64,000 nt of DNA from Eledone cirrhosa (taxonomy: Eukaryota), in the NCBI GenBank assembly GCA_964016885.1, contig OZ024740.1, forward strand, positions 330,460,001-330,524,000, read 5' to 3'. The notes under the pieces were generated by a model. It was not told the DNA's origin, searched no databases, and saw only the letters and a list, made by a program, of their open reading frames with translations. The position numbers and the translations under genes are program-made. Positions within the stretch are counted from its first letter, which is position 1; the number at the start of each line of letters is the position of its first letter. Shown here in pieces: positions 24,866 to 64,000 of the stretch.

Positions 24866-24995
24866 CATATACATACAGGTACACATACATATATGCACGT
24901 ATCAGTTTAGCGGACGCTTATTATAACGCCGCTTTGTTCGTTTGTTACGGTGTTAAGGCAACCACGTCACCTTTTTGTTCAACACTGACACAGGA

Positions 24996-25038
24996 ACGAT
25001 GTACTAGTTTCAAGCTTGTTAGCTATCATCAGCACCGT
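24996..25038 (-). ncRNA. Type I hammerhead ribozyme (family C)
   Basis: Minus strand reads acggtg CTGATGA tagct aaca agctt GAAAC TA GTA catcgt. Stem I is fully paired and stem III is the palindrome ACTAGT. Confidence 0.85.
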
Positions 25039-25467
25039 ATACCCATCTACCAGATAATTGAACGTTCGAAAGTATATACTTTCCTTATGAAAATTAACGG
25101 CTGAGCAGCCTAATTTGCATATCGAGTGAGCTAAGTCGGTCAGGCATACCGAAAACGATAAGTTGAAATAAAATGAAAACGAAATTTCATTTCTCACTCT
25201 TAGTACGGCACTTAATTAAATGTAAGTATGTGCGTATACGTACATACATATATGTATACAGACGTACAGTACACACATACTTACATTTAAGTAAGTGCCG
25301 TACTAAGAGTGAGAAATGAAATTTCGTTTTCGTTTTATTTCAACTTATCGTTTTCGGTATGCCTGACCGACTTAGCTCACTCGATATGCAAATTAGGCTG
25401 CTCAGCCGTTAATTTTCATAAGGAAAGTATATACTTTCGAACGTTCAACTATCTGGCAGATGGGTAT

Positions 25468-25510
25468 ACGGTGCTGATGATAGCTAACAAGCTTGAAACT
25501 AGTACCTCGT
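25468..25510 (+). ncRNA. Type I hammerhead ribozyme (family C), one stem I mismatch
   Basis: acggtg CTGATGA tagct aaca agctt GAAAC TA GTA cctcgt. Confidence 0.8.
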
Positions 25511-25666
25511 TCCTGTGTCAGTGTTGAACAAAAAGGTGACGTGGTTGCCTTAACACCGTACGGCATAAAAATTCAGGCTGTTCAGTTTGTTTACAAACGA
25601 ACAAAGCGGCGTTATAATAAGCGTCCGCTAAACTGATACGTGCATATATGTATGTGTACCTGTATG

Positions 25667-28946: not shown

Positions 28947-28982
<36 letters not shown>

Positions 28983-29266
28983 TCGTTTCTGAATTTGTTA
29001 AGCAAGATTCTTTATCTGAAAATGTGTCTTGAAATCGATATTGTTATACTTTGGGAGGGTCATGTTGCCAATAAGAAACATACGCACCAGTTACTTTCAA
29101 TTCAATTTATTATAATACATTTAAACATTTAGGAATTTATAAATTTCCGGTTGGTTGGTTGGTTCCACAACCAGATGATTGTTTATATATTGTCAAAATT
29201 ATTTCGTCACACATTCTGTGACCTCTTCAGTGACTGAAGAACAGTCAGGAATTAGAGAAAAACACC

Positions 29267-30305
29267 ATGGAAAGCATCCATCAAATAGCTAACTCCATCC
29301 ACCAGAGTATAAGAGTTACTCTAGACTACCCAAGCAAACACCTCATCCATCGATTACCTGTACTAGACACAGAGCTCTGGTTAGATACCATTAATAACAA
29401 AAAACAAATCCTCCATTCCCATTATGCCAAACACATGACTTCCAAATATCTGATCCACCGAAACTCAGCTGTTTCGGACCATACCAAAATCAACATACTG
29501 ATTGCGGATTTGGTACGCGTGATGAGAAACGTGTGCCGCATGTGCAACCCCAAAGATCTAGAGAGACACATACAACACTTCATCCACCGTATGCCATTCC
29601 CTGGTTACAATCAGAGAGCTAAAATCAGAGTATATAGAGGAGCCAGAACCAAATGGGAACAAATGGTAAATAATGACACAAATTGGACCTGCCCCTTGTA
29701 TAGGAGCAAATTTTGGAATATAATAGAAAGAACTAGGAATAAGGTTAATAGAATAAACTTATGGTATGATAGCAATACATACCAGAGTGAAATGTTCATC
29801 GATACAACCCCTAGAAGTGAATTAGCTTACAAATTTAGAAGTGCCCTAGATAAACATAAACTCAATATTAAGATAGTAGAAAGACCAGGTACCTCCATAA
29901 AAACACTTATTACCAATAAATACCCTTTTCAAAGACCTCCCTGTATAGATAAGAAATGTATAATATGTAAATTAAACCCCCGTGTTAACTGTAACACTAG
30001 AAATGTAGTACATAGCATAAGATGTACTGAAGGACAATGTAGAGATAATACTATAGTGTACATAGGTGAGACAACTCGTATGAACACTGGCGAGACCTTC
30101 AAGATAGTAAAGAATCATCTGTACTCTACCAACATGCTAAAATAGAACATAATGGTAAATTGGAGAACATATAAATAAAAATAGAATCTACACACAGAAA
30201 AGACGCAATGTTTAGACAAATCACAGATGCAATAAACATAAATGAACTCCAACCAAAATTAAATAGAAAACATGAATGGAACAGCAACATCACAACTTAC
30301 AATTA
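29267..30305 (+). pseudogene. PLE RT/GIY-YIG polyprotein fragment
   Basis: IHQSIRVTLDYP, LPVLDTELW, YLIHRNSA, CIDKKCIICK...C, VVHSIRC...C...VYIGETTR. After a frameshift or deletion it continues [12 protein letters not shown]...FRQIT...PKLNRKHEW. Confidence 0.85.
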
Positions 30306-30505
30306 AGGACAACATGAAAACATACACGCACAGAGAACAAACAACCAACCAGTAACATATAAATAAACAAATAAATAAGCAAATATAAAGACACACAGAC
30401 ACCCGGATGCAACACATGCGCAAACTAAACACACAACACACGAAAAAACAAGATGGCGTAGGCTAGAACAACGGAGAGGCACAAAAAACAAAGAAAAAAA
30501 TCCCC

Positions 30506-30550
30506 AGTCACTGAAGATGTCACACAATGTGTGACGAAAGAACTTTGACA
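30506..30550 (+). ncRNA. PLE pLTR hammerhead ribozyme
   Basis: agtca CTGAAGA t gtcacac aat gtgtgac GAAAG AA CTT tgaca. Confidence 0.7.
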
Positions 30551-30695
30551 ATGTATAAACAATCATCTGGTTGTGGAAGCAACCAACCAACCGGAAATTT
30601 ATAAATTCCTAAATTTATAAATTTATTATAATAAATTGAAGTGAAAGAAGCTGGTGCGTGTGTTTCTCATTGGCAACATGACCCTCCCAAAGTAT

Positions 30696-30771
<76 letters not shown>

Positions 30772-32605: not shown

Positions 32606-32789
32606 TTTGTATATATATATATATATATATATTGGAGTAAATGCTCTGAAATAGCGATATATATGTGAATATAGACATAGAATATTCGAAAATATTCTGT
32701 ATGTTTATAATAAACATTTTGAAGACCTAATCGCTATAGAATAGAATACGTCACGTATTACAATTAGATTCTCGATAAAAGCAAGGGAA

Positions 32790-32832
32790 GTAATCTACGC
32801 GTTTCATTCTTGTTAGAATTCATCAGGACCAC
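32790..32832 (-). ncRNA. Type I hammerhead ribozyme (family A), also at 33100-33142 and 33410-33452
   Basis: Reverse complement of gtggtc CTGATGA attct aaca agaat GAAAC GC GTA gattac. Confidence 0.9.
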
Positions 32833-33782
32833 ATATCCAGTGCTTTTATCGAGAATGACACAGCTAGAGACTTATAGAATACTTAGCTGTGTACAGGAAC
32901 TGGTTTGAAAGAGCGGTTGCCGGTCCGGCAGAAATTAGAAATTGGAGTAAATGCTCTGAAATAGCGATATATATGTGAATATAGACATAGAATATTCGAA
33001 AATATTCTGTATGTTTATAATAAACATTTTGAAGACCTAATCGCTATAGAATAGAATACGTCACGTATTACAATTAGATTCTCGATAAAAGCAAGGGAAG
33101 TAATCTACGCGTTTCATTCTTGTTAGAATTCATCAGGACCACATATCCAGTGATTTTATCGAGAATGACACAGCTAGAGACTTATAGAATACTTAGCTGT
33201 GTACAGGAACTGGTTTGAAAGAGCGGTTGCCGGTCCGGCAGAAATTAGAAATTGGAGTAAATGCTCTGAAATAGCGATATATATGTGAATATAGACATAG
33301 AATATTCGAAAATATTCTGTATGTTTATAATAAACATTTTGAAGACCTAATCGCTATAGAATAGAATACGTCACGTATTACAATTAGATTCTCGATAAAA
33401 GCAAGGGAAGTAATCTACGCGTTTCATTCTTGTTAGAATTCATCAGGACCACATATCCAGTGCTTTTATCGAGAATGACACAGCTAGAGACTTATAGAAT
33501 ACTTAGCTGTGTACAGGAACTGGTTTGAAAGAGCGGTTGCCGGTCCGGCAGAAATTAGAAATTGGAGTAAATGCTCTGAAATAGCGATATATATGTGAAT
33601 ATAGACATAGAATATTCGAAAATATTCTGTATGTTTATAATAAACATTCGCTATTTCAGAGCATTTACTCCAATTTCTAATTTCTGCCGGACCGGCAACC
33701 GCTCTTTCAAACCAGTTCCTGTACACAGCTAAGTATTCTATAAGTCTCTAGCTGTGTCATTCTCGATAAAAGCACTGGATAT

Positions 33783-33825
33783 GTGGTCCTGATGAATTCT
33801 AACAAGAATGAAACGCGTAGATTAC
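33783..33825 (+). ncRNA. Type I hammerhead ribozyme (family A), 9 plus-strand copies starting 33783, 34093, 34403, 34713, 35023, 35333, 35643, 35953, 36263
   Basis: Stem I gtggtc/gattac, core CTGATGA 33789-95, stem II attct/agaat, GAAA 33810-13, palindromic stem III ACGCGT, GUA cleavage triplet 33817-19. Distal stem I extension 33759-74/33832-47. Confidence 0.92.
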
Positions 33826-36425
33826 TTCCCTTGCTTTTATCGAGAATCTAATTGTAATACGTGACGTATTCTATTCTATAGCGATTAGGTCTTCAAAATG
33901 TTTATTATAAACATACAGAATATTTTCGAATATTCTATGTCTATATTCACATATATATCGCTATTTCAGAGCATTTACTCCAATTTCTAATTTCTGCCGG
34001 ACCGGCAACCGCTCTTTCAAACCAGTTCCTGTACACAGCTAAGTATTCTATAAGTCTCTAGCTGTGTCATTCTCGATAAAAGCACTGGATATGTGGTCCT
34101 GATGAATTCTAACAAGAATGAAACGCGTAGATTACTTCCCTTGCTTTTATCGAGAATCTAATTGTAATACGTGACGTATTCTATTCTATAGCGATTAGGT
34201 CTTCAAAATGTTTATTATAAACATACAGAATATTTTCGAATATTCTATGTCTATATTCACATATATATCGCTATTTCAGAGCATTTACTCCAATTTCTAA
34301 TTTCTGCCGGACCGGCAACCGCTCTTTCAAACCAGTTCCTGTACACAGCTAAGTATTCTATAAGTCTCTAGCTGTGTCATTCTCGATAAAAGCACTGGAT
34401 ATGTGGTCCTGATGAATTCTAACAAGAATGAAACGCGTAGATTACTTCCCTTGCTTTTATCGAGAATCTAATTGTAATACGTGACGTATTCTATTCTATA
34501 GCGATTAGGTCTTCAAAATGTTTATTATAAACATACAGAATATTTTCGAATATTCTATGTCTATATTCACATATATATCGCTATTTCAGAGCATTTACTC
34601 CAATTTCTAATTTCTGCCGGACCGGCAACCGCTCTTTCAAACCAGTTCCTGTACACAGCTAAGTATTCTATAAGTCTCTAGCTGTGTCATTCTCGATAAA
34701 AGCACTGGATATGTGGTCCTGATGAATTCTAACAAGAATGAAACGCGTAGATTACTTCCCTTGCTTTTATCGAGAATCTAATTGTAATACGTGACGTATT
34801 CTATTCTATAGCGATTAGGTCTTCAAAATGTTTATTATAAACATACAGAATATTTTCGAATATTCTATGTCTATATTCACATATATATCGCTATTTCAGA
34901 GCATTTACTCCAATTTCTAATTTCTGCCGGACCGGCAACCGCTCTTTCAAACCAGTTCCTGTACACAGCTAAGTATTCTATAAGTCTCTAGCTGTGTCAT
35001 TCTCGATAAAAGCACTGGATATGTGGTCCTGATGAATTCTAACAAGAATGAAACGCGTAGATTACTTCCCTTGCTTTTATCGAGAATCTAATTGTAATAC
35101 GTGACGTATTCTATTCTATAGCGATTAGGTCTTCAAAATGTTTATTATAAACATACAGAATATTTTCGAATATTCTATGTCTATATTCACATATATATCG
35201 CTATTTCAGAGCATTTACTCCAATTTCTAATTTCTGCCGGACCGGCAACCGCTCTTTCAAACCAGTTCCTGTACACAGCTAAGTATTCTATAAGTCTCTA
35301 GCTGTGTCATTCTCGATAAAAGCACTGGATATGTGGTCCTGATGAATTCTAACAAGAATGAAACGCGTAGATTACTTCCCTTGCTTTTATCGAGAATCTA
35401 ATTGTAATACGTGACGTATTCTATTCTATAGCGATTAGGTCTTCAAAATGTTTATTATAAACATACAGAATATTTTCGAATATTCTATGTCTATATTCAC
35501 ATATATATCGCTATTTCAGAGCATTTACTCCAATTTCTAATTTCTGCCGGACCGGCAACCGCTCTTTCAAACCAGTTCCTGTACACAGCTAAGTATTCTA
35601 TAAGTCTCTAGCTGTGTCATTCTCGATAAAAGCACTGGATATGTGGTCCTGATGAATTCTAACAAGAATGAAACGCGTAGATTACTTCCCTTGCTTTTAT
35701 CGAGAATCTAATTGTAATACGTGACGTATTCTATTCTATAGCGATTAGGTCTTCAAAATGTTTATTATAAACATACAGAATATTTTCGAATATTCTATGT
35801 CTATATTCACATATATATCGCTATTTCAGAGCATTTACTCCAATTTCTAATTTCTGCCGGACCGGCAACCGCTCTTTCAAACCAGTTCCTGTACACAGCT
35901 AAGTATTCTATAAGTCTCTAGCTGTGTCATTCTCGATAAAAGCACTGGATATGTGGTCCTGATGAATTCTAACAAGAATGAAACGCGTAGATTACTTCCC
36001 TTGCTTTTATCGAGAATCTAATTGTAATACGTGACGTATTCTATTCTATAGCGATTAGGTCTTCAAAATGTTTATTATAAACATACAGAATATTTTCGAA
36101 TATTCTATGTCTATATTCACATATATATCGCTATTTCAGAGCATTTACTCCAATTTCTAATTTCTGCCGGACCGGCAACCGCTCTTTCAAACCAGTTCCT
36201 GTACACAGCTAAGTATTCTATAAGTCTCTAGCTGTGTCATTCTCGATAAAAGCACTGGATATGTGGTCCTGATGAATTCTAACAAGAATGAAACGCGTAG
36301 ATTACTTCCCTTGCTTTTATCGAGAATCTAATTGTAATACGTGACGTATTCTATTCTATAGCGATTAGGTCTTCAAAATGTTTATTATAAACATACAGAA
36401 TATTTTCGAATATTCTATGTCTATA

Positions 36426-36458
<33 letters not shown>

Positions 36459-45277: not shown

Positions 45278-46035
45278 AATGTGTGTCTGTGTGTGAACCT
45301 ATCTATTGCTGCGTGTCTGGATGTTTGTTCCTGTGTGCCAGTCTGAGGTTTCTTTTAATTTCATGTTTCATGTAATTATATTTTATAAGCTCATGAATTA
45401 AATTTATTTCTATAAATCTAAGCCGATTTCATATATCATATAAGTTATTATCTCCGATTTCCAATTAGGTTTATCCTCTGAATCATTACTTATTTGCAAT
45501 ACTGATCTGTATATATATGACGGTTTATCAAGGTCGTTGTTAAATAACGTTTGATTTCGTTTTATTTTTAAACTACTATTATTATTAAATTCACAAATAA
45601 TGATATAAAATGATAAATATTTTATGAAATTAATCGCGATTCAGACACGCAAATGAAACCGCACATGAAAAGGAATTATGATATTGAGTATTTAGTGATT
45701 TGGAACAAACTACACCAATTCGGTTCCTATTTACTCAATTCCATTCAGTCAGTCATTCGATTAACGTGAATACATTTTCTCAGCATGCTGATGCAAACAA
45801 CGGAATAGGATGTAAGTAATAATCATAATAATATCATACCCAGTTAATGTATGCTTTTATCTGATCTGTTATACATCAATAAACTATATTAAACAGGTTT
45901 CTTATTTTTTTTTTTGCTTTACCCAAGAAATGTAAAACTTTGCATCTAATGCCCAATTCATATTTGTCCTAAGAACATTAACGAAAAACAAAAGCAAACT
46001 AAACACCAACTGCCTCAAAGGCCGGTAGATAGGTA

Positions 46036-46080
46036 AATATTGCTGATGAGTTGTAACAACAACGAAACTAGTTCAATATT
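46036..46080 (+). ncRNA. Type I hammerhead ribozyme (family B variant)
   Basis: aatattg CTGATGA gttgt aaca acaac GAAAC TA GTT caatatt. Confidence 0.85.
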
Positions 46081-46766
46081 CCTTGTCTGGCTTTCTGGAC
46101 AATAGGGGGAAGGTGTTCTCCCAAAAGTATGTAAACACACAGACAAACCGGTTTTTAGAGTCATACTGGTTTTCGAGGAAACACCTTTCCTCTATTCTCC
46201 AGTAAGCCAGACAAGGAATATTGGACTAGTTTAGATGTTGTTACATCTCATCAGCAATATTTACCTATCTTCCGGCCTTTCTAGAGAATCGTAAAAGCAC
46301 ATATCGTTATATGCTTTTTCTATGAAAATTAGTAGTGGGCAGACTAATTTGCATAGAGCGTGAGTACGTACCGGTTCAGCGGAGACGATAAAAACAAATA
46401 ACGAAACGAAATTAAATTTCGTTTCGTTTACATACAGAATAGCTGGACACTCACAGTAAAGTGTCCAGTGAAAAACTCGGTACATCTACATATGTACACG
46501 TGTGTGTATTCATATGCATACTAGTATTTCAGTATACATATGTGGATGTACATTTCTAACTTAATTGTTTAAGCGTCAGTCATACAAAAGTGAGTTACAA
46601 ACGAAACGAAATTTAATTTCGTTTCGTTATTTGTTTTTATCGTCTCCGCTGAACCGGTACGTACTCACGCTCTATGCAAATTAGTCTGCCCACTACTAAT
46701 TTTCATAGAAAAAGCATATAACGATATGTGCTTTTACGATTCTCTAGAAAGGCCGGAAGATAGGTA

Positions 46767-46811
46767 AATATTGCTGATGAGATGTAACAACATCGAAACT
46801 AGTCCAATATT
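46767..46811 (+). ncRNA. Type I hammerhead ribozyme (family B)
   Basis: aatattg CTGATGA gatgt aaca acatc GAAAC TA GTC caatatt. Confidence 0.92.
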
Positions 46812-47026
46812 CCTTGTCTGGCTTACTGGAGAATAGAGGAAAGGTGTTTCCTCGAAAACCAGTATGACTCTAAAAACCGGTTTGTCTGTGTGTTTACATA
46901 CAGAATAGCTGGACACTCACAGTAAAGTGTCCAGTGAAAAACTCGGTACATCTACATATGTACACGTGTGTGTATTCATATGCATACTAGTATTTCAGTA
47001 TACATATGTGGATGTACATTTCTAAC

Positions 47027-47119
<93 letters not shown>

Positions 47120-47124
<5 letters not shown>

Positions 47125-47505
47125 TATACTTGGGGAGGGACATATTTGTGTAATAATATTGCCAGAATTAAAAACAGAACACACTCACTGTTTGGTTGGT
47201 TTTCGCTTCTGTGTCTTTTATATTGGTTAATTTAATTTAATCTGTCCTCAACGTTACTATTGACTGAACAACGGTCAAAAATACTGATACAATATAGACA
47301 CAGACACTATATATATGTGTTTGTGTCTATATTGTATCTGTATGTTTGACCGTTAGTCAGTCAATAGTAACATTGAAGACCGAATAAATTAAATTAACCG
47401 ATATAAAAGACACAGAAGCGAAAACCAACCAAACAGTGAGTGTGTTCTGTTATTAATTCTGGCAATATTATTACACAAATATGACCCTCCCCAAGTATAA
47501 CAATA
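47120..47505. repeat. ~190-bp-arm imperfect palindrome with PLE-type termini
   Basis: tgttatacttggggaggg...gacacagacac-(TA)-gtgtttgtgtc...atgaccctccccaagtataaca. The ends match the PLE pLTR terminus seen at 30678-30703. Confidence 0.7.
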
Positions 47506-47569
47506 TAACAATGAGTTTCGACTCACGATTTCATATAAAAAAACTCGCAAAACTATATATATATAATAT

Positions 47570-48598: not shown

Positions 48599-48665
<67 letters not shown>

Positions 48666-48673
<8 letters not shown>

Positions 48674-50745
48674 ATACTTTGGGAGGGTCATGTTGCCAAT
48701 AAGAAACACACGCACCAGTCGCTTTCACTACAATTTATTATATATTTATAAATTTATAAATTTACAAATCTACAAACTTATAAATTTCTGGTTGGTTGGT
48801 TGGTTCCACAACCAGATAGTTGTTTATATATAGTCATAGTCCTTTCGTCACACACTCTGTGACCTCTTCAGTGACTGGTGATTCCATTCTTTGTTTCTGT
48901 GCCTTTCCTTTCTTCTATCCTACGCCATTTTGTTTCTGTGTGTGTGTTGTGTGCTCAGTTTGCGCATGCGCCACATCCGGGTGTCTGTGTGTGTTTGTGT
49001 TCATTTATCTGTTTGTTTATTTATTTAATTATTTATTGTTGGTTGGTTGTTTGTTCTATGTGTGTGTGTGTTTTCATTTTGTCCTTAATTGTAAGTTGTG
49101 ATGTTGCTGTTCCACTCATATTTTCTATTTAATTTTGGTTGTAATTATTGTTATACTTTGGGAGGGTCATGTTGCCAATAAGAAACACACGCACCAGTTG
49201 CTTTCACTTCAATTTAATTTATTATATATTTATAAATTTACAAATTTATAAATTTCTGGTTGGTTGGTTCGTTCCACAACCAGATAGTTGTTTATATATA
49301 TATAGTCATAGTTCTTTCGTCACACACTCTGTGACCTCTTCAGTGACTGGGGATTTCTTTCTTCGTTTCTGTGCCTTTCCTTTCTTCTATCCTACGCCAT
49401 TTTGTTTGTGTGTGGGTTGCGTGCTCAGTTTGCGCATGCGCCACATCCGGGTGTCTGTGTGGGTTTGTGTTCATTTTTCTATTTTTCTATTTATATTTTT
49501 CTATTTGTTTGTTTATTTATTTATTTATTGTTGGTTGGTTGTTTGTTCTATGTGTGTGTGTGTTTTCATTTTGTCTTGTGTGTGTTTTCATTTTGTCTTG
49601 TGTGTGTTTTCAATTGTAAGTTGTTTGTTCTATGTGTGTGTGTGTTTTCATTTTGTCCTTAATTGTAAGTTGTGATGTTGCTGTTCCACTCATATTTTCT
49701 ATTTAATTTTGGTTTTAAATCTTTTATGCTTACTGCCTCTGTAATTTGCCTAAACATTGCGTCTTTCTTGTGTGTGGATTCTATTTTTATTTCTATGCTC
49801 TCTAATTTACCCTTGTGTTCTATCTTAGCATGTTGGTAGAGCACAGATGATTCTTTAAGAATCATCTGTGCTCTACCAACATGCTAAGATAGAACACAAG
49901 GGTAAATTAGAGAGCATAGAAATAAAAATAGAATCCACACACAAGAAAGACGCAATGTTTAGGCAAATTACAGAGGCAGTAAGCTTAAAAGAATTAAAAC
50001 CAAAATTAAATAGAAAATATGAGTGGAACAGCAACACCACAACTTACAATTAAGGACAAAATGAAAACACACACACACATAGAACAAACAACTTACAATT
50101 GAAAACACACACAAAATGAAAACACACACACACATAGAACAAACAACCAACCAACAATAAATAAATAAATAAACAAACAAATAGAAAAATATAAATAGAA
50201 AAATAGAAAAATGAACACAAACCCACACAGACACCCGGATGTGGCGCATGCGCAAACTGAGCACGCAACCCACACACAAACAAAATGGCGTAGGATAGAA
50301 GAAAGGAAAGGCACAGAAACGAAGAAAGAAATCCCCAGTCACTGAAGAGGTCACAGAGTGTGTGACGAAAGAACTATGACTATATATATATAAACAACTA
50401 TCTGGTTGTGGAACGAACCAACCAACCAGAAATTTATAAATTTGTAAATTTATAAATATATAATAAATTAAATTGAAGTGAAAGCAACTGGTCCGTGTGT
50501 TTCTTATTGGCAACATGACCCTCCCAAAGTATAACAATATCGGTTTCAACACACGATTTCAGATAAAGAATCTTGCTAAACAAATTCAGAAACGAAATTT
50601 GGTTGTAATTGTTTTATGCTTACTGCCTCTGTAATTTGCCTAAACATTGCATCTTTTCTGTGTGTGGATTCTATTTTTATTTCTATGTTCTCTAATCTAC
50701 CCCTGTGTTCTATCTTAGCATGTTGGTAGAGCACAGATGATTCTT
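48666..50745. mobile_element. Cluster of PLE pLTR/ORF-end copies, same family as 28981-30703: - 48666-49145, - 49146-49858, + 49859-50598, - 50598-50745
   Basis: [12 protein letters not shown]...FRQITEAVS...PKLNRKYEW in ORFs 49659(-), 49868(+) and 50576(-). pLTR HHRs at 48832-48876 (-), 49304-49348 (-) and 50337-50381 (+). Confidence 0.9.
50337..50381 (+). ncRNA. PLE pLTR hammerhead ribozyme
   Basis: agtca CTGAAGA g gtcaca gagtg tgtgac GAAAG AA CTA tgact. Confidence 0.78.
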
Positions 50746-50763
50746 TATATATATATATATATT

Positions 50764-52275: not shown

Positions 52276-53300
52276 TGTGTGTGTGTGTACTTGTGTCTCT
52301 GAGTGTGTTTATTTGTGTATGTTCGCTTCAAATTTATTCAATAAAATATTGCAACTCAAAAGAAGAACAGTATCTACATCAAATGGATGATAATAGAACA
52401 CTATCGACTGTAAATAAATGAGCCCAGCCGAGCAAATTTTGAAATAAGGAAAACTAGTCGATATTCAATAACCTCCACAACAACGTTTGATGATTTAATC
52501 CCCGACAGAATTATTCTGCCTATGCCCCCAAGGATATAAACACATTTTATTGAGCTAGTATCCTTAAATGTTGATATTAGCCTTCCCCACAAATATATAT
52601 TATTATATTTCACTTTTATCTATCCCCTTCTAAATTCTTAGTGCCGTAGATGGAAGTGTCCCCTAAAATAACATTTTTGGGAGCTCCCGTTTTTTTTTTT
52701 TATTTCTTTTAGTAAACATTTACCGGTGCGTTCCGATCTGTCCAGGTCGACCAAGTTGGCCCTGAAGCCCAACGAACGGTTTGTCCTTGGTGCTGTGCTG
52801 TGCTGTCGGAGTTGAGTTGCTCAATACCTTGAACATATTTACCAAATGATTACTAATACCAGTAATATATATATATATATATTTATAATTATCTCCAAAT
52901 TATTTGTTGAGCAAAATTTGCCAAATTACTACTGTGACTGATAGTAGTAGCTAGGCTCTGTCTTAATAGCACCCCCACTCCAAGCTGGTTAACCTCAGTG
53001 TCACGTGATTGATTCTTTTGAATTTGCCACTTGACCAAGAAGGCAGTGAATTTTTCAATGGCTTGGAATCTAGCCCCGCTCGCTTTTTTCCATCCACTGA
53101 ATTATTTTTATATAAGTTCCCAGTGTCCCCGCATTGCCTGGAAACTTAGCTGAGAATAGACTCCCTGATGACGTAAGCCTTCTCTATAGTTATTACGTAA
53201 CTATATTTATGTCCTTACAGAAACTAATTAGTTGGAGTGAAATTTTAGTAAGTAAGTCAATTTTCATAACTTTCTTATTTACGTCTTTCATATATATATA

Positions 53301-54915
53301 TAAAAACAAATAACGAAACGAAATTAAATTTCGTTTCGTTTGTAACTCACTTTTGTATGACTGACGCTTAAACAATTAAGTTAAAAATGTACATCCACAT
53401 ATGTATACTGAAATACTAGTATGCATATGAATACACACACGTGTACATATGTAGATGTACCGAGTTTTCACTGGTCACTTTACTGTGAGTGTCCAGCTAT
53501 TCTGTATGTAAACACACAGACAAACCGGTTCTTAGAGTCATACTGGTTTTTGAGGAAACACCTTTCATCTATTCTCCAGAAAGCCAGACAAGGAATATTG
53601 GACTAGTTTCGATGTTGTTACATCTCATCAGCAATATTTACCTATCTTCCGGCTTCTCTAGAGAATCGTGAAAGCACATATCGTTATATGCTTTTTCTAT
53701 GAAAATTAGTAGTGGGCAGACCAATTTGCATAGAGCGTGAGTACGTACCGGTTCAACGGAGACGATAAAAACAAATAACGAAACGAAATTAAATTTCGTT
53801 TCGTTTGTAACTCACTTTTGTATGACTGACGCTTAAACAATTAAGTTAAAAATGTACATCCACATATGTATACTGAAATACTAGTATGCATATGAATACA
53901 CACACGTGTACATATGTAGATGTACCGAGTTTTCACTGGTCACTTTACTGTGAGTGTCCAGCTATTCTGTATGTAAACACACAGACAAACCGGTTCTTAG
54001 AGTCATACTGGTTTTTGAGGAAACACCTTTCCTCTATTCTCCAGAAAGCCAGACAAGGAATATTGGACTAGTTTCGATGTTGTTACATCTCATCAGCAAT
54101 ATTTACTGGTCTGCCCACTACTAATTTTCATAGAAAAAGCATATAACGATATGTGCTTTCACGATTCTCTAGAGAAGCCGGAAGATAGGTAAATATTGCT
54201 GATGAGATGTAACAACATCGAAACTAGTCCAATATTCCTTGTCTGGCTTTCTGGGGAATAGAGGAAAGGTGTTTCCTCAAAAACCAGTATGACTCTAAGA
54301 ACCGGTTTGTCTGTGTGTTTACATACAGAATAGCTGGACACTCACAGTAAAGTGACCAGTGAAAACTCGGTACATCTACATATGTACACGTGTGTGTATT
54401 CATATGCATACTAGTATTTCAGTATACATATGTGGATGTACATTTTTAACTTAATTGTTTAAGCGTCAGTCATACAAAAGTGAGTTACAAACGAAACGAA
54501 ATTTAATTTCGTTTCGTTATTTGTTTTTATCGTCTCCGTTGAACCGGTACGTACTCACGCTCTATGCAAATTGGTCTGCCCACTACTAATTTTCATAGAA
54601 AAAGCATATAACGATATGTGCTTTCACGATTCTCTAGAGAAGCCGGAAGATAGGTAAATATTGCTGATGAGATGTAACAACATCGAAACTAGTCCAATAT
54701 TCCTTGTCTGGCTTTCTGGAGAATAGAGGAAAGGTGTTTCCTCAAAAACCAGTATGACTCTAAGAACCGGTTTGTCTGTGTGTTTACATACAGAATAGCT
54801 GGACACTCACAGTAAAGTGACCAGTGAAAACTCGGTACATCTACATATGTACACGTGTGTGTATTCATATGCATACTAGTATTTCAGTATACATATGTGG
54901 ATGTACATTTTTAAC

Positions 54916-54921
<6 letters not shown>
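53301..54921. mobile_element. Retrozyme-like family B, locus 2: ~1.7 units (-) at 53301-54105 plus ~1.75 units (+) at 54106-54921
   Basis: Period 465 (duplicate ORFs 53421/53886 and 54159/54624). HHRs at 53594-53638 (-), 54059-54103 (-), 54192-54236 (+) and 54657-54701 (+). (TA)n on both sides. Confidence 0.9.
54192..54236 (+). ncRNA. Type I hammerhead ribozyme (family B), second plus copy at 54657-54701
   Basis: aatattg CTGATGA gatgt aaca acatc GAAAC TA GTC caatatt: 7-bp stem I, 5-bp stem II, ACTAGT stem III, GUC triplet. Confidence 0.92.
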
Positions 54922-63398: not shown

Positions 63399-64000
63399 GG
63401 TATAAACGTTAGAACATTCTCCAGCATGGACGCCAGTATAAAGTTCAGCATAGAACACCCCGATGACCGCGGATCCCTATCCCTGCTGGACTTCCAACTC
63501 AGGGTAACAGAGGAAGGCAACATCCACACCTGCTTCTATAAAAAATCCGCCAGCAGGGACCTGTTCGTACATTTCAGATCGGCCCTCCCACTCGGTGCCA
63601 AGTTCGGATACATAAAGAACGAACTGGCACGTATCAAGAACAAATGCACCGACGCCAGAGACCGAGACACACACACCACACATTTCCTGGAAGTACTCAA
63701 ACTGAACGGATACACGACATCCACCACAAACCGTGCCAGAAAGAACAGAGGACACCACACCCGAGGCACTAACACTTGCTTCCTGAATCTCCCACACTTC
63801 AGTGAAGAAACAACAACAGCCATCCGCAGAGCCATCAGACGAGAAGGTCTGGATATTCAACTGGCCCATTCGGGTCCTTCTTTGCGTGGACGGCTAGCTA
63901 AGAGACACTCCACCAGACATGACAACTGCTGCAGACTAGCCAACTGCCCCATCAACGACACAGACCTATGCCACCAGGCTTACGTAGTTTACAGACTAGA
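63399..64000 (+). CDS. Penelope-like RT C-terminus, thumb, Cys motif and start of GIY-YIG; open to window end, 5'-truncated
   Basis: Stop-free frame (absent from the ORF track): FSSMDASIKFSIEHPDDRGSLSLLDFQLRV...FYKKSASRDLFVHFRSALP...FLEVLKLNGY...FLNLPHFSE...CCRLANCPINDTDLCHQAYVVYRL. Preceded by (TA)n and a ~40-nt extra piece. Confidence 0.85.

Follow-up and report, generated by a model that had tools for sequence, protein, structure and literature searches.

The window is a stretch of 64,000 nucleotides of the Eledone cirrhosa genome (contig OZ024740.1). At 46017–47032 it holds a non-coding tandem repeat with hammerhead motifs, arranged in opposed orientations beside an (AT)n run, which raises the question of how such an array comes to be inserted. 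The initial annotation described the locus as an independent insertion of a dispersed mobile family with conserved RNA structure and a preferred priming site, and flagged three details: a compensatory swap in stem II of one ribozyme copy, a dead ribozyme copy and a 3´ end shared with a second locus of the window. These three details turned out to be minor. The shared end is real, both loci finishing in AACTTAATT followed by (AT)n, at 47032 and 54921. Their flanks do not align and have nothing in common, as befits independent insertions rather than a segmental duplication. The many substitutions said to separate the loci amount to 11 of 466 columns (about 2.4%), so that the units do differ, but modestly.

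The repeat, here called family B, is a non-coding tandem unit of 465–468 bp, numbered so that u1 is 46567 and u466 is 47032 (Table 1). The longest stop-free frame of the tripled unit reaches 57/60 codons, and the same frame scan found no ORF with reverse transcriptase (RT) and GIY-YIG endonuclease. Near-identical copies were recovered on many contigs of the same 3.0 Gb genome (39–40 scored among 267–537 candidates per search). A hammerhead pattern covering family B and its sister family S gave 23,335 genome matches, with 0 for the control. Together with the unrelated flanks, these numbers bear out the dispersed mobile family that had been proposed. At least three subfamilies (B1, B2 and B3) occur among the fetched loci, with more in the genome-order sample described below, and arrays extend up to about 30 units per arm. 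One family B insertion (L267:2212-2773) sits in (ATC)n rather than (AT)n. The unit also carries an octamer-like motif (Table 1); a promoter of the snRNA type occurs in newt satellite 2.

Table 1. Features of the two family B loci of the window (positions are those of the window).
Feature	Position	Strand	Details
B2 stub	46017..46126	+	110 bp, unit positions about 182-291
Type I hammerhead motif, B2 variant	46036..46080	+	Stem II GUUGU/ACAAC, triplet GUU, predicted cut after 46073
Inverted arm, subfamily B1	46127..46429	-	Unit 335 to 33, left to right; expected b end absent
Hammerhead copy predicted to be inactive (TAAA, core change G12-to-U)	46217..46261	-	Changed base at 46233 of the + strand
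Direct arm, subfamily B1	46426..47032	+	Last 141 bp of unit, then full 466-bp unit 46567-47032
Tail, site a (46566/46567) to site b (46640)	46567..46640	+	From unit alignment and end counts
ATGCAAAT octamer-like motif	46674..46681	+	Also in sister family S by alignment; about 100 nt upstream of hammerhead
Type I hammerhead motif, common variant	46767..46811	+	Triplet GUC, cut predicted after 46804; stem II GAUGU/ACAUC
End site a (AACTTAATT) and (AT)n target run	47024..47122	+	
Second locus, left arm, subfamily B3	53300..54106	-	Site b end against (AT)n at 53300
Second locus, right arm, subfamily B3	54107..54921	+	Site a end against (AT)n

The 3´ ends of the insertions were tabulated in a census of 97 insertions, segmented around 150 of the 336 listed matches, and around those of the TAAA 30-mer, together with the two window loci; one (L152) was incomplete at the edge of its stretch and was dropped, leaving 96 complete insertions. 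Among 157 sense-3´ ends, 75 lie at one site (a, u461–u6), 76 at a second (b, u71–75) about 70 nt away, and 6 elsewhere. (AT)n adjoins 139 of these ends, while the free 5´ ends (n = 35) are scattered in position. The junctions are not random, and the suggestion of a preferred priming site holds to that extent; what it missed is that there are two such sites, used about equally and combined in a one-of-each pattern. Two-armed head-to-head insertions (n = 61) comprise 56 with a+b ends, none with a+a, none with b+b and 5 with one end elsewhere, a one-of-each pairing in 56/56 classifiable insertions (binomial p 1.4e-17). The second window locus, 53300–54921, is a typical a+b insertion. One-armed insertions end at a in 16 cases, at b in 18 and elsewhere in 1. 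The segment between the two sites, hereafter the tail, contains a 29-bp palindromic hairpin (46600–46628 in the window).

Since the census loci had been picked by similarity, the count was repeated on 17 family B clusters, drawn from the first 100 matches when these are taken in order along the genome. Seven of them are a+b and none has two ends of the same class; 4 pair a defined end with a short complementary remnant and 6 show one defined end. Taking both samples, the short remnants that adjoin (AT)n belong to the complementary class in 11/11 cases. Two same-class or off-target matches to the remnant motif, at L070 and in the left flank of the 46017 locus, were set aside as chance, neither of them adjoining (AT)n.

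Several features bear on whether the two arms arise in one event and from one template. A flank match of 10–15 nt was found in 13 of the 17 informative loci (of 60 examined, informative being those whose target is not pure (AT)n), against 2.2 in shuffles, with a maximum of 6; the true target duplication is probably a few bases shorter than this match. In 52 simple a+b loci, the two arms differ by 0.17%, compared with 0.45% when arms are permuted inside the subfamily (0/1,000 permutations), and seven locus-private alleles are the majority base in both arms. Most minority variants (64/72) have no mirror in the opposite arm, a pattern in keeping with several rounds of copying of a single monomer template, each with errors of its own. 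Variants mirrored between arms are limited to three in L075, in the same register, and one in L153+65; those of L075 fit a linear multimer or a DNA copy, not a monomer circle. Recurrent variants within some long arrays suggest later expansion at the DNA level. The internal junctions (n = 58) show an overlap of at least 2 nt in 23 cases, an overlap of 0–1 nt in 11 and inserted bases in 24, as expected of end joining. Two RNAs transcribed at a single source locus, or gene conversion, could also produce shared haplotypes.

In the family B hammerhead, stem I has 7 bp, stem II has 5 bp and stem III has two pairs capped by a palindromic loop; according to the accessible text of PMC4209133, type I hammerheads with such a short stem III need a dimer for cleavage. 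Three copies in the locus match Rfam Hammerhead_HH9 (E 3e-8, 6e-8 and 4e-7) with scores of 39.4, 38.6 and 35.9 bits, under the gathering score of 52, at which the Rfam search returned zero matches; Rfam miRNA and snoRNA matches in the unit were dismissed as hairpin noise. Two intact main variants make up 399 of the 416 scored pieces.

The copy at 46036–46080 indeed reads gTtgt/acaAc in stem II, with GTT at 46071–46073, the other six copies in the window having gAtgt/acaTc and GTC. The change is a true compensatory one, but it is a subfamily marker and did not arise at this position: the gTtgt subfamily pattern has 5,221 genome matches, with the compensating acaAc in all of the first 100 listed. 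As it belongs to a subfamily pattern, the swap counts as one inherited event. The copy at 46217–46261 does read TAAA in place of GAAA and is predicted to be inactive, as annotated. Its exact 30-mer occurs in 2 places genome-wide, and hammerhead core positions mutate at the background rate of 0.19% (8/4,184 vs 360/192,580); the TAAA copy is therefore read as a sporadic mutation without information, an instance of ordinary background decay. The TAAA base itself occurs in none of the short-read contigs or reads examined, and contigs drop rare variants.

Support for a conserved RNA fold in family B comes instead from sequence comparison of whole units, and the proposal of conserved RNA structure is upheld at that level. 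Subfamilies B1 and B2 differ at 26 sites. Mapped onto the predicted B1 fold, 8 of them make up 4 compensatory pairs, where random placement gives 0.29 pairs (p 5e-5), 4 are pair-breaking against 10.5 expected (p 0.001), 8 retain pairing via G–U and 6 are unpaired. The 9 sites that separate B1 from B3 carry no such signal. Across 12 variants including sister family S, 7 of the 17 hammerhead pairs are altered on both sides, with pair shuffles that ignore relatedness and 12 rows that represent few independent events; the core is invariant in all of them except the TAAA copy. The circular fold of the unit is predicted at -156.5 kcal/mol (z -12 on 40 shuffles), with a z of -6.4 for the antisense strand.

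The same end rule is found in two further families. Sister family S, with 62% global identity to family B, ends at sites homologous to a and b; both ends were found in 11 of 34 stretches, all of them a+b, of which two share flanks, leaving 10 independent cases. The window contains a two-armed family S copy at 24900–25640, whose hammerhead has a GUA triplet, and family S units often hold an internal (AT)n of variable length.

Family C codes for protein, with open frames that reach 1,281 aa. There are 39,621 candidates in the genome, and 150 scored copies share 98–100% protein identity. Its ORFs align to RT/GIY-YIG ORFs of the same genome at 24–25% identity (E 3e-16 and 1e-20), while a Pfam search of these ORFs returned zero matches; their assignment to Penelope-type elements (PLEs) is based on pairwise alignments and motifs read by eye. 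Two-armed copies with both ends visible were found in 17 of 20 stretches, and 16 of these 17 are a+b with a 60-nt tail, in a sample where 12 of the 17 had been selected as head-to-head pairs and the a end of L348 was taken from the alignment and not from the motif script. The sole b+b case among the 17, L336, is a perfect mirror. Family C arms differ by 0.47% when they belong to one locus vs 1.72% when they belong to different loci, and in 24 of 32 cases the closest arm is the sister arm. Family C lies in the window at about 28975–30700 and 48660–50750. The copy at 28975–30700 has two arms, of which one ends with a tail and the other without, and its RT/GIY-YIG frame, at 29234–30145, is broken. 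Family C is a very young family and the leading candidate for a mobiliser. A further PLE family (L186, L187 and L197) has RT and GIY-YIG matches, an (AT)n end and a tail of about 65–75 nt; a pattern search found no hammerhead in it.

Published work on PLEs offers a biochemical setting for these ends. In the available portions of PMC11167929, a PLE protein whose predicted form is a dimer acts in vitro on AT-rich DNA, both strands of which it cleaves and extends; synthesis begins at two positions on the RNA, one at each edge of the genomic tail, and no strand preference was seen. The end counts and this published biochemistry make PLE twin priming at a and b the simplest reading, and family B is likely to be a non-autonomous PLE, of the non-LTR retrozyme kind, that inserts in this way. 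Its observed basis consists of the dispersion of the family, the lack of an ORF, two fixed 3´ ends, their one-of-each pairing, scattered 5´ ends, target duplications, a haplotype common to both arms and the same end rule in a PLE that codes for RT/GIY-YIG. The two-armed a/b structure is likely the footprint of a Penelope-type RT copying one RNA from both ends of a DNA cut. In this scheme, transcripts of family B arrays would be cleaved by their hammerheads, probably in dimeric form, and the products would probably become circular. An RT-endonuclease of a PLE, likely a dimer astride the tail hairpin of one RNA, would then open (AT)n with a stagger of about 10 nt; one target 3´ end would prime at a and the other at b, the number of units copied would vary from one cDNA to the next, and end joining would unite both cDNAs head to head.

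The stricter form of PLE twin priming, in which asymmetry is obligatory, the dimer straddling the tail of one RNA with a used on one strand and b on the other, is put forward tentatively, at somewhat less than an even chance. If it were true, two enzymes on a hammerhead-made RNA circle would roll out back-to-back tandem arrays, one mechanism would account for the PLE tail, the inverted arms and the retrozyme arrays, and retrozymes would be moved by PLE enzymes with which they have no pLTR sequence in common. Twin priming has points against it: no autonomous partner was identified by sequence in the stretches searched, joins between families are a+b in just 1 of 3, L336 is b+b, mirrored variants occur in L075 and L153+65, the two PLE start sites lacked strand preference in vitro, and the 46017 locus has no b end.

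The search for a partner covered a small sample of 50 GIY-YIG stretches (the 30 best-scoring of 10,596 candidates and 20 with long frames), in which no similarity of the unit to an autonomous PLE was found. In four family C stretches, the best non-repeat match was 18/21 nt (E 0.77). This match, not significant, relates 46616–46636, in the 3´ part of the B tail, to the reverse complement of the b end of family C (L348:4025-4045), and may possibly reflect a recognition motif. B arms also lie head to head with young intact pieces of the family C ORF, with no AT run, at L069:2088-4127 and L124:2663-7256, and either co-priming or a deletion into a neighbour may account for them. Joins of a B arm to another family were examined as possible co-primed chimeras. 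Three could be scored, L124 (which runs off its contig) and L269 (no defined end) being left out. L069, a B b-arm with an intact family C arm ending at a, is complementary, while L084 and L107 are b+b, so that 2/3 fail the a+b test; L141 is an antisense neighbour. The joins are better read as deletions into neighbours, and the partner is not named by them.

In L1 twin priming, two target 3´ ends prime on one RNA to give a head-to-head inversion with a microhomology join; the internal site used by the second primer varies there, and the two arms have no overlap. In family B, by contrast, the two sites have fixed positions about 70 nt from each other, and the same sequence is copied in both arms.

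It is also conceivable, though unlikely, that each subunit of the enzyme primes on its own RNA, the a/b asymmetry being set by the protein and matching arms reflecting few source loci. Such a two-RNA process would explain the overlap of the arms without strand displacement, and L069 would fit it. However, no listed two-armed locus combines arms of clearly different subfamilies, except for the B2 stub of the 46017 locus, the seven locus-private alleles are common to both arms, and two of the three joins between families are b+b.

It is quite improbable that priming occurred once and that the cDNA then folded back and copied itself, endonuclease resolution setting the second end, as the accessible parts of PMC3846280 and PMC8557442 propose for PLE palindromes and tails. 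The mirrored variants of L075, the perfect mirror of L336, two junctions located centrally in the tail palindrome (L116 and L137) and the 302/303 identity between the inverted and direct arms of the 46017 locus would suit such a process. By contrast, 64/72 minority variants are unmirrored, the longer arm can be either one (a 5,742 and b 421 nt in L131; a 420 and b 7,342 nt in L153+65) and the one-of-each ends are left unexplained.

A foldback DNA transposon or MITE with fixed a and b ends, or a satellite spread by segmental duplication, is largely refuted and carries very little probability: inverted arms, fixed ends, target duplications and long arrays agree with such elements, but internal junctions and arm lengths vary per locus (59 junctions listed, with one near-repeat), about one third of the loci have a single arm and 5´ ends at scattered positions, flanking sequences are unrelated and the same anatomy is seen in the RT-coding family C. 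Assembly is known to be error-prone at inverted repeats in AT-rich DNA, and the perfect mirror of L336 and the two internal junctions of the 46017 locus, spanned by none of the listed short-read pieces, would agree with a long-read fold-back or assembly artefact, which is nevertheless scarcely credible given asymmetric arms with different ends, target duplications, and short-read contigs that show the b end joined to (AT)n as well as the 46017 flank junction.

The preferred reading, PLE twin priming at sites a and b, relates family B to two known kinds of element, and the comparisons that follow refer to the accessible parts of the works cited. Metazoan non-LTR retrozymes (Cervera & de la Pena 2020, PMC7229834; Li et al. 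2026, bioRxiv 10.64898/2026.07.22.740005) resemble family B in several respects: the tandem unit has low GC, measures a few hundred bp, does not code for protein and carries a type I hammerhead, copies are dispersed in their thousands, the unit is strongly self-paired, and PLEs occur in the same genome. Several characters by which non-LTR retrozymes are recognised are found in family B, namely unit length with a type I hammerhead motif, no coding capacity, dispersed multicopy occurrence, target duplications longer than 4 bp and a stable self-paired unit with conserved fold. Family B also shows several of those of a non-autonomous PLE (two 3´ sites around a tail, an inverted 5´-truncated arm and a microsatellite target), while the RT/GIY-YIG ORF of an autonomous EN+ PLE is lacking. 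Head-to-head arms, two fixed 3´ ends and targeting of (AT)n distinguish family B, no description of them being given for metazoan retrozymes in these texts; the words 'inverted' and 'microsatellite' have 0 occurrences in PMC7229834. The connection with PLEs is drawn for retrozymes from co-occurrence and pLTR similarity, and for family B from insertion anatomy, with no pLTR homologue found in the PLE stretches searched. RNA circles have been demonstrated for metazoan retrozymes, whereas those of family B are putative. It has been proposed in PMC7229834 that RT acts on retrozyme circles to give tandem cDNA, with PLEs as candidates, and bioRxiv 10.64898/2026.07.22.740005 ties retrozymes to pLTRs and reports cleavage in vitro as absent in 8/9 Xenopus retrozymes. 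EN+ PLEs such as Neptune and Poseidon (PMC8557442, PMC11167929, PMC3846280) have an ORF and a tail of 30–40 nt, in contrast with the ORF-less family B and its tail of about 70 nt, and do not show its arms of up to about 30 units.

The qualitative two-arm and tail pattern is already in print, and the kind of element itself is known. Inverted PLE arms, often with the tail at one end only, have been ascribed to endonuclease resolution or self-priming (PMC8557442, PMC3846280). A near-strict rule of one a and one b, given as a count, is not stated in the accessible text of PMC8557442, PMC11167929 or PMC3846280, and neither such a count nor its extension to retrozymes was found in the literature searched, most subscription journals lying outside it. 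The origin of PLE tails and inverted arms is called open in the text available from PMC8557442 and PMC11167929, and the enzyme that moves animal retrozymes is only suggested in that of PMC7229834 and bioRxiv 10.64898/2026.07.22.740005. Here the rule is seen in two hammerhead families and an ORF-bearing PLE of one genome, with thousands of very young copies, and makes both questions directly testable: which strand starts where, and whether one RNA is used or two.

Against this background, the 46017–47032 locus itself is atypical and probably comprises two insertions, since the gTtgt swap sits in a 110-bp piece of another subfamily. This B2 stub is 99% identical to B2 copies elsewhere in the genome, and the B1 arms are 99.3–99.7% identical to other B1 copies. 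The locus is the only B2 and B1 mixture among the 96 insertions, and it lacks both the b end and a left (AT)n, the 5´ end of the stub abutting single-copy flank directly. Stub and inverted arm together make up a near-symmetric palindrome (46017–46280). The most probable history is that the stub is older and that a B1 copy inserted beside it and lost its b end; the AT tract of the B2 copy would have received the B1 insertion, the centre being lost during insertion or later. A template switch onto B2 RNA, in place of two insertions, is less likely than this two-step course. The flank/element junction at 46017 is crossed without differences by short-read contigs (three runs of one sample, possibly the one used for the assembly). 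RAD reads of two other individuals end at about 45979, before this junction, and a third individual has none there. Directly past the AT run lies another fold-back element (47120–47510) with arms of about 170 bp, a nested targeting of the same AT tract.

Other elements are present in the window. GC-rich coding remnants of other retroelements lie at 662–1724 and 63399–63998, with zero matches in a Pfam search; the latter resembles by eye the PLE ORF in L196. A separate family with a 310-bp unit occupies 32631–36438, where 3.3 inverted and 9 direct units, 99–100% identical, lie between (AT)n runs. It likewise contains a hammerhead-like motif with an AACA loop, and its left arm extends about 30 nt beyond the point where the right one stops, in the manner of a tail.
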